Source of the DNA: Candidatus Altiarchaeales archaeon ex4484_96
GTDB lineage: Archaea; Altiarchaeota; Altiarchaeia; IMC4; QMZM01
DNA length: 64,000 nt
Direction of reading: 5' to 3'
NCBI GenBank assembly: GCA_002254405.1
Contig: NJDH01000003.1
Location: 5,080-69,079 of the forward strand
The notes beneath the pieces were generated by a model, which did no database searches, was not told the origin of the DNA, and saw only the letters and a program-made list of their open reading frames with translations. Position numbers and translations under genes: made by a program. Below, piece after piece: positions 30,327 to 33,163 of this stretch (within the stretch, counting starts at the first letter, position 1; the number at the start of each line of letters is the position of its first letter).

Positions 30327-33163
30327 ATGTTTTCTCCCAGGTTCTGGTGGATGTATATGTTATATTCGGTATCCCAGCTTGTGTGGGTTACTAGCTCGGG
30401 TCTTCCATGGCTGGTTAGGTAATCTTCTACCTGATTGAAGTAGACTGCTGCGTAGCTTTCCCACACGCTCACATCCATGATGTCGCAGATGTGTGTTGTT
30501 CCGCCGCTATCATAGCAGTCTATGATTGCCTGGCTTACCTGCGCTACCCTTGTATCCAGGGGCAGCATATAATGTAATTCCACGCTGCTGCAGGCTCCAT
30601 CGAATTTAGCTGCATCCATCCAGTGATCCCATCCATAATCGTTCCATGTGATGGTTCTTGCCCCCCCCTGGCATGTGCAGGAGCCGCAGGTGGAAAACCA
30701 GCTTGTGATGGGGGCCCATGTATGACAGCATGTGATATCCATAGCCCACCAGCTTCCCGAATCGGACTGGTACATGACAACACTATGTTCGGTTGTTGCT
30801 GTATCAAAGCGCACACCATATGCTCTGCCCGGGGGGACCCCCACGGTCCTGATAAGCGATAAGAGCACTATAGACCAGTGAGTGCATACTCCTCTAAGAG
30901 AGGGGTTGTTTATGAGTTGACTGGCTGTGTTGTCTGCGCAGGCTGCTCCACCGTACTGGTGTATTGAGTGTAGTTCGGTGAATATTTTTTCCACTGCATT
31001 ATCAAAGCTTCCGCCGGCGACTTCCGATGCTAATGAGGGGTCTGATAGAACCCATTCATTGATTTTGGTTTGCATGGGGGGCTCGGGGTCGCATATTTCT
31101 ATTCCCCCGTTTATGTAGTCTGTGATGTGGTCGTAGATGGTTTTAGGCCATGTTGGCAGGTTAACATATTGCATGGTGCATACGACATCTTTTTGCGGTT
31201 CAACGGGTTCGCCTAAACATGAGCCTGTGACTGTTAATTCCACTGTTTCGTCGTCTGTGTTGCTTGCTGAGTCGGTTACGGTTAGTGTTATCGTGTATGT
31301 TCCCTGTGTGGTGTAGTCGTGTGTTGTTGTTTCCCCTGAGCCGGTTGCTCCATCCCCGAAATCCCACGCATATGCTGTGTAGGGTGTTGTTCCCCCGGTT
31401 GCGCTTCCTGTTAAGCTGACTGTTAAGGGGGCTGCTCCGGTGAGGGGGTTGGCATCAATTGATGCCGTAAGCGCTGGTATGGTCACGGTTATGTCTTGGG
31501 TGGCTTGGTCTGTATCGGCGTTATCGTCTTCTACTGTCAGCGTTATCGTGTATGTTCCCTGTGTGGTGTAGTCGTGTGTTGTTGTCTGCCCTGAGCCTGT
31601 TGACCCATCTGCGAAATCCCACACGTAGGAGTAGGGTGCGGTTCCACCGGTTGCGCTTCCTGTTAAGCTGACTGTTAAGGGAGCCGCTCCTGTGAGAGGA
31701 TTAGCAGAAAATGATGCTTGCAAATCCCCATCTCCGTCACCGTCTCCATCACCATCCCCGTCGCCACCACCACCATCATAGCAGGCGTAGGTGCTGCAGT
31801 CTAGCTGGGGCAGGGTACTTAGATGATCCATACAGTGTTCGCAGAATCCTATTGGCTCGGCGGCCCCCCCCGGACCCATTATGCAGCGCCCTCCGTTGGG
31901 GTTTAGGTTACCTAAGCAGGTTATTTCTATGGGGCTGGGGCATGATGTCCCTCCAGCACAATAGTCTGAGGTAAACCCTGGAGCGGGGTCGCTTCCGCTC
32001 ATTGATGCATCCAGGCAGTTAGCTGCTGGATTCTCTAAACCGTATCCACCGCATCTACAGGCATCATAGTATTCGTCGTTTAAGCCCCATTTGTTTCCTA
32101 GCTCATGTAAAACAGAGGCTCTGTGAACTGATTCCGCGATGATTATTTTAGCCAAGTTTGGGTCTGTCTTATAAACCCATCCTGCATGGCTCCCGCAGAC
32201 GTCGGTATCTATAAAACCCACCGCATAATCGTAGGTTTCACCTGTTGCATCAGCGCATGCTTTAACCGCCGACAGGGCGTTAACCATCATCGAATCGTTG
32301 CAGAATCCAGAATTAAGTGATGCTGTGCAGGCAGTATCTGATCTTATTATTTTAATTGATGTAGGACAGTCTTTGAGAGGTGTGTTTTGGGTTATCAGGT
32401 TTTTCTGCTCCTCGACGCTGCCTTCGTATGTGCCTGAAAAAGCCCAGTTTAGGGGGATGAATAACAGGGTCAGCTTGGGTTCAGCTATTATTATGTTAAT
32501 GGAGTCGCTTCCGCTTTTCTGGGGGCTGCTGCTGTCTGTTACGCTGTAGGTGATAGTGTGCCCTCCCACGGAAAGGCTATCGTTTATGAAATCCGACACA
32601 TCTCCCATGTTGTCAAGCAGTTCAAAGAGCTGTCCATTAATACTTGAGCTCCATCTGTGGTCGTAGTTGGCTGTTCCCCCTGATACGCTCCCAAAGAAAT
32701 GTATTTCCTCGCCCTCCCCAAAGCATGCTCCGTCGGCGGGGTATTCTATCACAACGGTTAAATCCCCATCTCCGTCCCCGTCACCATCCCCATTTACTCC
32801 CGGCACATCGCATGCTTCCATCACATCAACATCCTCCATTAAAAGATCCGCTAAGGCGATGAATCCCACGATTATGACCACCCCCAGTATGGTGTTGAAT
32901 ATGATGTGTTTGCCTTGGTTTTTTATGCCCGGGTCGGTGCTCAACTGCATCAATCCTCCTAAGGCGAATAAAACGAACATTATGGGAACCAGAAGAGTCA
33001 TTATAACGCAGAGTATGGGCACGATTAGACAGGTTAGTCTCCCCAAGTAATCTGTTTGGGGGGCGGGGCATATTTCCTCGAGAGATTGTGCTGTAACACT
33101 GGAGGATATAATAAATATTAGCAGAAGATAAATGAGTTTTTTTTTGTTATTGCTGGATGACAT
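30266..33163 (-). CDS. 965-aa surface protein with an N-terminal hairpin module (TM anchor), a (GD)n linker, a beta-rich domain, a zincin-like domain with degenerate HELGN...GLNDEY motif, a (GD)n linker, two PKD repeats and a Cys-rich C-terminal domain
   Basis: N-terminus CLIVPILCVIMTLLVPIMFVLFALGGLMQLSTDPGIKNQGKHIIFNTILGVVIIVGF. VNGDGDGDGDGDL and GGGGDGDGDGDGDGDGD linkers. PKD WDFADG/WDFGDG motifs. The HExxN motif is at residues 353-365, encoded at about nt 32069-32110. Confidence 0.7.
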   Translation of the reverse strand: MSSSNNKKKLIYLLLIFIISSSVTAQSLEEICPAPQTDYLGRLTCLIVPILCVIMTLLVPIMFVLFALGGLMQLSTDPGIKNQGKHIIFNTILGVVIIVGFIALADLLMEDVDVMEACDVPGVNGDGDGDGDGDLTVVIEYPADGACFGEGEEIHFFGSVSGGTANYDHRWSSSINGQLFELLDNMGDVSDFINDSLSVGGHTITYSVTDSSSPQKSGSDSINIIIAEPKLTLLFIPLNWAFSGTYEGSVEEQKNLITQNTPLKDCPTSIKIIRSDTACTASLNSGFCNDSMMVNALSAVKACADATGETYDYAVGFIDTDVCGSHAGWVYKTDPNLAKIIIAESVHRASVLHELGNKWGLNDEYYDACRCGGYGLENPAANCLDASMSGSDPAPGFTSDYCAGGTSCPSPIEITCLGNLNPNGGRCIMGPGGAAEPIGFCEHCMDHLSTLPQLDCSTYACYDGGGGDGDGDGDGDGDGDLQASFSANPLTGAAPLTVSLTGSATGGTAPYSYVWDFADGSTGSGQTTTHDYTTQGTYTITLTVEDDNADTDQATQDITVTIPALTASIDANPLTGAAPLTVSLTGSATGGTTPYTAYAWDFGDGATGSGETTTHDYTTQGTYTITLTVTDSASNTDDETVELTVTGSCLGEPVEPQKDVVCTMQYVNLPTWPKTIYDHITDYINGGIEICDPEPPMQTKINEWVLSDPSLASEVAGGSFDNAVEKIFTELHSIHQYGGAACADNTASQLINNPSLRGVCTHWSIVLLSLIRTVGVPPGRAYGVRFDTATTEHSVVMYQSDSGSWWAMDITCCHTWAPITSWFSTCGSCTCQGGARTITWNDYGWDHWMDAAKFDGACSSVELHYMLPLDTRVAQVSQAIIDCYDSGGTTHICDIMDVSVWESYAAVYFNQVEDYLTSHGRPELVTHTSWDTEYNIYIHQNLGENICFKYDQTVDWVRVMEESKC
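31255..31770. repeat. About 255-bp tandem direct repeat (2 copies, roughly 85-90% identical) encoding the two PKD domains
   Basis: gttatcgtgtatgttccctgtgtggtgtagtcgtgtgttgttgt occurs at 31287 and 31542. ggttgcgcttcctgttaagctgactgttaaggg occurs at about 31400 and 31650. Confidence 0.6.

Follow-up and report, generated by a model that had tools for sequence, protein, structure and literature searches.

A metzincin-like domain with asparagine at the second zinc ligand

A 64-kb stretch of contig NJDH01000003.1 from Candidatus Altiarchaeales archaeon ex4484_96 (assembly GCA_002254405.1, positions 5,080 to 69,079 of the forward strand), hereafter referred to as the window, encodes a 965-residue multidomain surface protein. 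Its Cys-rich domain, spanning residues 227-456, truly belongs to an uncurated family of Cys-rich metzincins, predicted to be extracellular, that occurs mainly in metagenome-assembled genomes (MAGs) of DPANN-type archaea. The window copy carries Asn instead of the second His of the zinc-binding motif (Asn357), and we consider it probable that a catalytic zinc ligand was genuinely lost, specifically in this lineage, leaving a folded domain with weak or no activity within a protein that has itself been remodelled.

The reverse complement of positions 32069-32110 is TTA CAT GAG CTA GGA AAC AAA TGG GGC TTA AAC GAC GAA TAC and translates as L-HELGNKWGLNDEY. A first-pass annotation, made from the sequence alone, had reported that the GLNDEY half of a zincin-like motif is preserved here, that HExxH reads HELGN, and that Asn takes the place of the second zinc-binding His. 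These readings proved correct, and relatives of the protein carry HExxHxxGLxDEY. By analogy with metzincins and with the M64 peptidase IgAse, H353 would be a zinc ligand, E354 the general base and D363 the third ligand; N357 stands at the place of the second His, and G360, E364 and Y365 complete the motif. The metzincin zinc consensus is HExxHxxG/NxxH/D, from which the window copy (HELGNKWGLND) departs by Asn in place of the second His. This copy retains the first His, the catalytic Glu, the Asp, the Tyr and the Met-turn, leaving His357 to Asn as the sole change at the zinc site, and the codon found at residue 357, AAC, differs by one base from CAC. Two His residues specific to the window copy, His322 and His347, were considered as substitute ligands and judged unlikely from helix geometry, with position i-5 lying on another face.

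The zinc motif is nearly invariant across the family

A word-indexed protein search returned a single relative, or four when a profile was used, and was too insensitive; representative proteins were therefore searched exhaustively with HMMER using a two-sequence profile. This yielded 243 family representatives at E<=1e-3, of which 150 reached E<=1e-10, and conservation was counted on an alignment of the 150 best of these at least 243 representatives. Both the HExxHxxGLxDEY motif and the GGRxIM Met-turn were nearly invariant. Of 153 aligned motifs, 152 had the first His and the Glu, with a single misaligned fragment lacking them; the second His was found in 150, and the other three were two with Gln and this fragment, none having Asn at this position. 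The third-ligand position was occupied by Asp in 141 of 154 aligned motifs and by Glu in 11, with E/Q-Y next. The Met of the GGR[CS]IM[SG] Met-turn was found in 143/147 aligned domains and in all full-length ones (117/117).

A profile built from 35 relatives matched residues 227-456 of the window protein at E 2.9e-85, and a score of this size over the surrounding 230 residues means that the motif is no chance match. At positions conserved in at least 85% of the family, the window domain agreed at 27 of 29, the exceptions being F to Y and H to N, so it shows no general decay. P0001, its nearest relative at 47% identity, has HELSHEWGLNDEY where the window motif stands, and the motif of P0015 is exactly HELGHKWGLDDEY. 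Identical or near-identical DNA or protein was absent from the indexed proteins, genome contigs and metagenome contigs; in the metagenome contigs, an exact DNA pattern around the codon also found nothing. The family profile detected no second copy of the domain in the window.

Second-His losses also occur elsewhere in the family. Gln replaces this residue in the second domain of P0002 (residues 1209-1437), which lies in tandem with a canonical domain, and in P0088 (residues 426-673), the motifs being HELGQALGLQDEY and HEIGQIYGLADEY, respectively. In the P0088 cluster, Gln is kept in 4/4 distinct sequences with the rest of the motif intact; because it is fixed across these four sequences, the family does show natural and stable loss of this His. 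The three domains lacking the His (those of the window, P0002 and P0088) share only 27-39% identity with one another, and the six nearest neighbours of each all have His. Given this low mutual identity and these neighbours, the three losses are independent events.

A search for GTDB loci was made with a 10-sequence alignment, the 35-sequence alignment being too diverse. It gave ten loci, from mainly DPANN-type MAGs: four from Aenigmatarchaeota, others from Nanohalobium and Altiarchaeia, three from further archaeal MAGs labelled Euryarchaeota, Methanosarcinales or "uncultured archaeon", and one from an Anaerolineales bin. Nine of the ten carried the canonical HExxH; in the other, L010, the motif search matched nothing. 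The Anaerolineales locus (L012, contig CAYYVH010000130.1, 1588..5628) encodes a 1347-residue bacterial protein with the same domain and a canonical motif, so the family is not strictly archaeal. The P0015 locus has archaeal housekeeping surroundings with a T4SS_pilin protein nearby. Across the family, the metzincin-like domain is combined with PF18895/TrbC hairpins and PKD domains; the usual member has a VirB2-like pilin hairpin at its N-terminus, predicted to fix it to the cell, and PKD domains are frequent.

Fold and profile evidence for a metzincin

The AlphaFold2 (AF2) model of the window domain, which had a predicted local distance difference test (pLDDT) score of 93.7 and a predicted template modelling (pTM) score of 0.91, displayed the five-stranded sheet, backing helix, active-site helix and C-terminal helix of metzincins, and the Met of a Met-turn lies downstream of the zinc motif. 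Foldseek comparison of this model with the PDB gave 52 matches at E<=1e-3; the 50 listed were nearly all adamalysins, ADAM/ADAMTS proteins or fragilysin (exception 6O38), with a probability of 1.00. Top matches were adamalysin II (E 2.6e-6, template modelling (TM) scores 0.50/0.57), atrolysin C, ADAM8 and fragilysin, with TM scores of 0.5-0.6. The 35-sequence profile, in turn, found the M64-like structure 3P1V as its best PDB match (E 1.4e-6), then 4DF9 (E 2.7e-5) and, more weakly, adamalysins/ADAMTS5, snapalysin 1C7K (E 6e-3) and archaemetzincin. Matches to the M64-like, adamalysin and snapalysin structures reached well past the motif. Since family conservation, profile matches and the predicted fold agree, we assign the domain to the metzincins, which upholds and narrows the zincin-like label of the first-pass annotation. 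A fold unlike that of zincins had been named there as a refutation, and the structural matches show the opposite.

Curated models recognized the domain poorly. Neither Pfam nor NCBIfam matched residues 227-456, whether in the whole protein or as an isolated domain, and the isolated domain had no Pfam match even at E<=10. Among the 35 relatives, Reprolysin_5 was matched weakly by 32, Peptidase_M64 weakly by 21, M6 by 8 and M7 weakly by 9. The M64 model (PF09471) did not match the window, and most relatives fell under its cut-off, P0020 reaching 26.9 bits against a cut-off of 26. Reprolysin models also gave nothing in the window, and Reprolysin_2, _4 and _5 stayed below cut-off in the representatives with listed scores; full-length P0002 scored 24.7 bits with PF01421 (Reprolysin), over the 20.8-bit cut-off. 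For M6 (InhA), the eight matches to PF05547 were weak (best E 1.4e-3), and no InhA chain was found among the PDB matches at E<=10.

The kinship with M6 and M64 peptidases that had been proposed at first thus holds in part: M64-like structures are closest by sequence, but adamalysin-type (M12B) structures are closest by fold, and M6 is absent from the PDB matches. The attribution of HExxHxxGLxDEY to these two families likewise needs correction for M64 proper, whose motif is HExxHxxxGxxD, with an extra residue before the Gly (PMC12237041); HMMER accordingly needed a one-residue insertion in 3P1V. The spacing in the window family is the standard metzincin one, as in snapalysins (M7) and thuringilysins (M6, InhA), which also have Asp as third ligand (PMC12237041) but differ from the window family in domain size and Cys pattern.

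Igalysins (M64: IgAse of Thomasclavelia ramosa; Bacteroides 3P1V and 4DF9) provide the best profile match among solved structures, 3P1V being aligned from the N-terminal subdomain through DEY. At the sequence level, they share with the window family the Asp of the third ligand position, the Glu then Tyr that follow it, the Cys of a C-I-M Met-turn and the CxxC of the C-terminal helix. In contrast, the catalytic domain is about 230 residues long in the window family and 313 in IgAse, the window family is far richer in Cys, and M64 keeps the second His where the window copy has Asn. The adamalysins/reprolysins (M12B: snake venom metalloproteinases, ADAMs) and fragilysin (BFT) are the best fold matches and have the C-I-M Met-turn in common with the window family. 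However, their identity to it is only 10-19%, the M12B third ligand is His (HExxHxxGxxHD) rather than Asp, and the window family is mainly archaeal, is anchored by a pilin hairpin, has no recognizable prodomain, and has a different C-terminal subdomain that bears a putative structural zinc site. The most fitting description of the family is an uncurated group of metzincins whose upper subdomain resembles that of adamalysins and whose lower one resembles that of igalysins.

A putative structural zinc site may divide the family

In IgAse, the third zinc ligand is Asp, and a structural zinc is coordinated by the Glu that follows this Asp, by the Met-turn Cys (C-I-M) and by two Cys located in the C-terminal helix (E551/C606/C616/C619); the Tyr after that Glu is a probable tyrosine switch (PMC12237041). 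The window domain displays the same igalysin-type pattern at the sequence level, with D363-E364-Y365, C427-I428-M429, C441 and C444. In the AF2 model, a helix spans domain residues 216-222, and C441-x-x-C444 falls where the predicted C-terminal helix begins. The E/C/C/C set corresponding to window residues 364, 427, 441 and 444 was complete in 59 of 117 full-length domains, and nearly all of the others replace all three Cys. Such joint presence or loss is the pattern predicted by a shared metal site, and it suggests two subfamilies, one with and one without an IgAse-like structural zinc site. The Cys-less half mostly has Ser/Ala, Asp and Ser/Glu/Asp instead, and often DQY rather than DEY.

Architecture of the window protein

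The features of the protein are listed in Table 1. Two runs of (GD)n flank the metzincin-like domain, as first described, although an immunoglobulin (Ig)/PKD-like domain intervenes after the first run. This divergent domain matches HYR weakly and resembles the protein's own two PKD domains, which are themselves matched at E 6e-17 by the ColH PKD domains in the PDB. The extracellular topology of these domains is predicted.

Table 1. Features of the metzincin-like surface protein gene, in window coordinates
Feature	Residues	Position	Strand	Basis or remark
Gene for the multidomain surface protein containing the motif, 965-residue open reading frame (ORF)		30266..33163	-	
Signal-peptide-like N-terminal segment, MSSSNNKKKLIYLLLIFIISSSVTAQS	1-27	33083..33163	-	Hydropathy peak; predicted
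VirB2/TrbC-like pilin hairpin, two transmembrane helices	~40-112	32828..33046	-	Hydropathy and weak PF18895 match
First (GD)n linker	122-134	32762..32800	-	
Divergent Ig/PKD-like domain, ~90 residues	137-226	32486..32755	-	HYR E 0.054 and internal similarity
Cys-rich metzincin-like domain, 15 Cys	227-456	31796..32485	-	Family profile, AF2 model, Foldseek
Zinc-binding consensus, HELGNKWGLNDEY	353-365	32069..32107	-	Roles by analogy with metzincins and IgAse
Asn357 codon, AAC	357	32093..32095	-	His codon CAC would need G, not T, at plus-strand 32095
Met-turn, GGRCIMG	424-430 (C427, M429)	31874..31894	-	
C-terminal helix, FCEHCMDHL	C441 and C444	31820..31846	-	Putative structural zinc site with E364 and C427
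Second G4(GD)n linker	464-480	31724..31774	-	
Two PKD domains	~481-646	31226..31723	-	PF18911 E 9e-30, PF00801 E 1e-22
Transglutaminase-like (papain-fold) core, C760/H793/D809 pattern	723-809	30737..30997	-	PF01841

The hairpin anchor initially proposed is supported by the signal-like segment and by two further hydrophobic segments at about 42-75 and 88-112. PF18895 (T4SS_pilin) matched the protein weakly (E 0.014, below the Pfam threshold), and a profile made from the pilin-like repeats of another protein in the window matched residues 44-105 at E 0.015. In the relatives P0001, P0009 and P0026, PF18895 is found N-terminal to the same metzincin-like domain. A signal peptide followed by a two-helix hairpin is also the layout of the VirB2/TrbC-like pilins of Patescibacteria and DPANN (PF18895); in the window protein, however, the hairpin appears to serve solely for anchoring and is joined to some 850 residues of predicted extracellular domains. 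Arrays of divergent VirB2-like genes have been described in Patescibacteria (PMC12102498).

The C-terminal region (residues 647-965; 30269..31225, minus strand) holds the transglutaminase-like core, which scored 26.6 bits with PF01841 against a cut-off of 23, and 24.0 bits with the whole protein as query. Its sequence motifs form an apparent Cys-His-Asp triad. No PDB sequence match was obtained for this region, and none of the 150 family representatives compared has such a tail. In the closest subfamily, 32 of 34 metzincin-like domains are C-terminal; that of the window is internal and is followed by the two PKD domains and the transglutaminase-like domain, an architecture that is unusual for the family.

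What the substitution may mean

In canonical members, both His of HExxH and the Asp of GLxDEY would hold the catalytic zinc, with the Glu of HExxH as general base, the invariant Tyr probably acting as a tyrosine switch and the GGRCIM Met-turn lying beneath the metal; half of the family would also bind a structural zinc, as in IgAse, via the DEY Glu, the Met-turn Cys and the CxxC of the C-terminal helix. In the window protein, a single base change from CAC to AAC would have put Asn357 at the second zinc ligand with all else kept. For comparison, the zinc affinity of carbonic anhydrase II falls by a factor of roughly 10^4-10^5 when a ligand His is changed to Asn or Gln. We infer that Asn357 most likely cuts zinc affinity by orders of magnitude, leaving a folded domain with little or no peptidase activity, which may serve as a binding or spacer module in a protein whose C-terminal transglutaminase-like domain could supply catalysis. 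Inactive homologues with altered zinc motifs are known for the adamalysin fold, including several ADAMs and the BlatPII venom proteins (PMC5086652).

Some observations sit uneasily with a loss of the catalytic site. Glu, Asp, Tyr and Met of the catalytic site are still in place, which fits a change that happened very recently, or ongoing selection for catalysis, better than a long-standing pseudoenzyme, and the replacements at the second-His position are all amides (N, Q, Q), still able to ligate metals. The collections searched contained no relative above 49% identity, which bears on the age and fixation of the change, and a single-base error or minor allele would look the same. The retained residues would also suit an active metallopeptidase with a non-canonical metal site, in which Asn357, directly or via water, would complete the coordination by His353 and Asp363, possibly of a metal harder than zinc. 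Among about 154 domains, this His has been replaced three independent times and only by Asn or Gln, and Gln is stably kept across the four distinct P0088-cluster sequences. A His codon altered at random in one base gives Gln or Asn in about 3/8 of cases, so three amides would arise by chance in about 5%. We nevertheless regard such an active site as unlikely. We found no metzincin precedent for a catalytic HExxN or HExxQ site, Asn is shorter than His and can place no atom at the His N-epsilon-2 site, and the carbonic anhydrase II variants show what the loss of a ligand can cost. Proteolysis was undetectable in venom adamalysin homologues that have Gln instead of a zinc-ligand His (PMC5086652). 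A broader form of this idea, in which Asn and Gln are tolerated alternative ligands that arose three times independently, became fixed in at least one lineage and give an active HExxN/Q...D site with altered metal affinity or preference, seems to us rather improbable; if true, the window protein would perhaps be a surface protease, belonging to a DPANN episymbiont, that is open to regulation or binds a different metal.

The first-pass annotation had suggested that HExxH in all orthologs would point to a sequencing error at this position. The relatives do almost universally carry it (150/153), which leaves some room for a base error, yet Gln is fixed in the P0088 lineage. Under such an error, made in sequencing or assembly, or with a minor population allele, the true protein would read HELGHKWGLNDEY and be an ordinary active protease. 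The one-base difference between AAC and CAC, the uniqueness of Asn among the 153 motifs, the absence of relaxation elsewhere in the domain and the exact motif of P0015 all agree with this explanation. On the other hand, substitution errors are rare in assembly consensus, the long ORFs of the window are all intact, natural loss of this His is seen elsewhere in the family, and the derived architecture of the protein suits a changed role; we give an error or minor allele a small probability. Finally, chance resemblance of the motif in a Cys-rich domain that is no protease could be imagined from the lack of any Pfam match to the isolated domain. It is effectively refuted by the family-wide conservation of HExxHxxGLxDEY and the Met-turn, by the metzincin fold found with a probability of 1.00, and by the profile matches to M64-like, adamalysin and snapalysin structures beyond the motif.

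Genomic surroundings

The genes of the window are archaeal and encode, among others, the replication factor C small subunit, isoleucyl-tRNA synthetase, ThyX, A/V-ATPase subunits and aspartyl-tRNA synthetase. Scans of the window for tRNA and Rfam families returned nothing. The 3' end of the metzincin-like gene is overlapped by a 314-residue ORF (29382..30326, minus strand), and the two probably share an operon. This ORF has hydrophobic N- and C-terminal segments, repeated CDPDC and C-x-D-C acidic Cys motifs and no Pfam match. Divergent from the metzincin-like gene lies a Cys-rich ORF of 1598 residues (33229..38025, plus strand) with an N-terminal signal-like segment, a C-terminal hydrophobic anchor and no Pfam match at E<=1e-3.

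The window is also unusually rich in hairpin-anchored proteins. One ORF (989..4168, plus strand) encodes a 1059-residue protein made of ten tandem VirB2-like pilin hairpins, of which PF18895 detected eight stretches (E 3e-57) and a self-built repeat profile ten; this "poly-pilin" may be a polyprotein precursor or else a membrane protein with several hairpins. The repeat profile revealed at least six further plus-strand ORFs with a pilin-like hairpin, located at 2..946, 38027..42440 and 45310..46104, four of them being consecutive genes at 38027-42440. These had no other Pfam match. No VirB4-like ATPase was seen among the window ORFs scanned.

Significance

Taken alone, the H to N change amounts to an ordinary pseudoenzyme-type event, and might even reflect a base error, in a family that is undescribed but clearly metzincin. 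If the Asn is real, nature has here run an experiment on the metzincin zinc site, within a family that has neither a curated model nor a studied member, and the result bears on whether the surface domains of small-genome archaea are enzymes or binding modules. Of greater use is a by-product, the family as such, with at least 243 representative clusters of Cys-rich metzincins anchored by pilin hairpins. Its mix of standard spacing, Asp third ligand and IgAse-like structural zinc signature could justify a new Pfam or MEROPS entry, which would aid the annotation of DPANN cell-surface proteomes.

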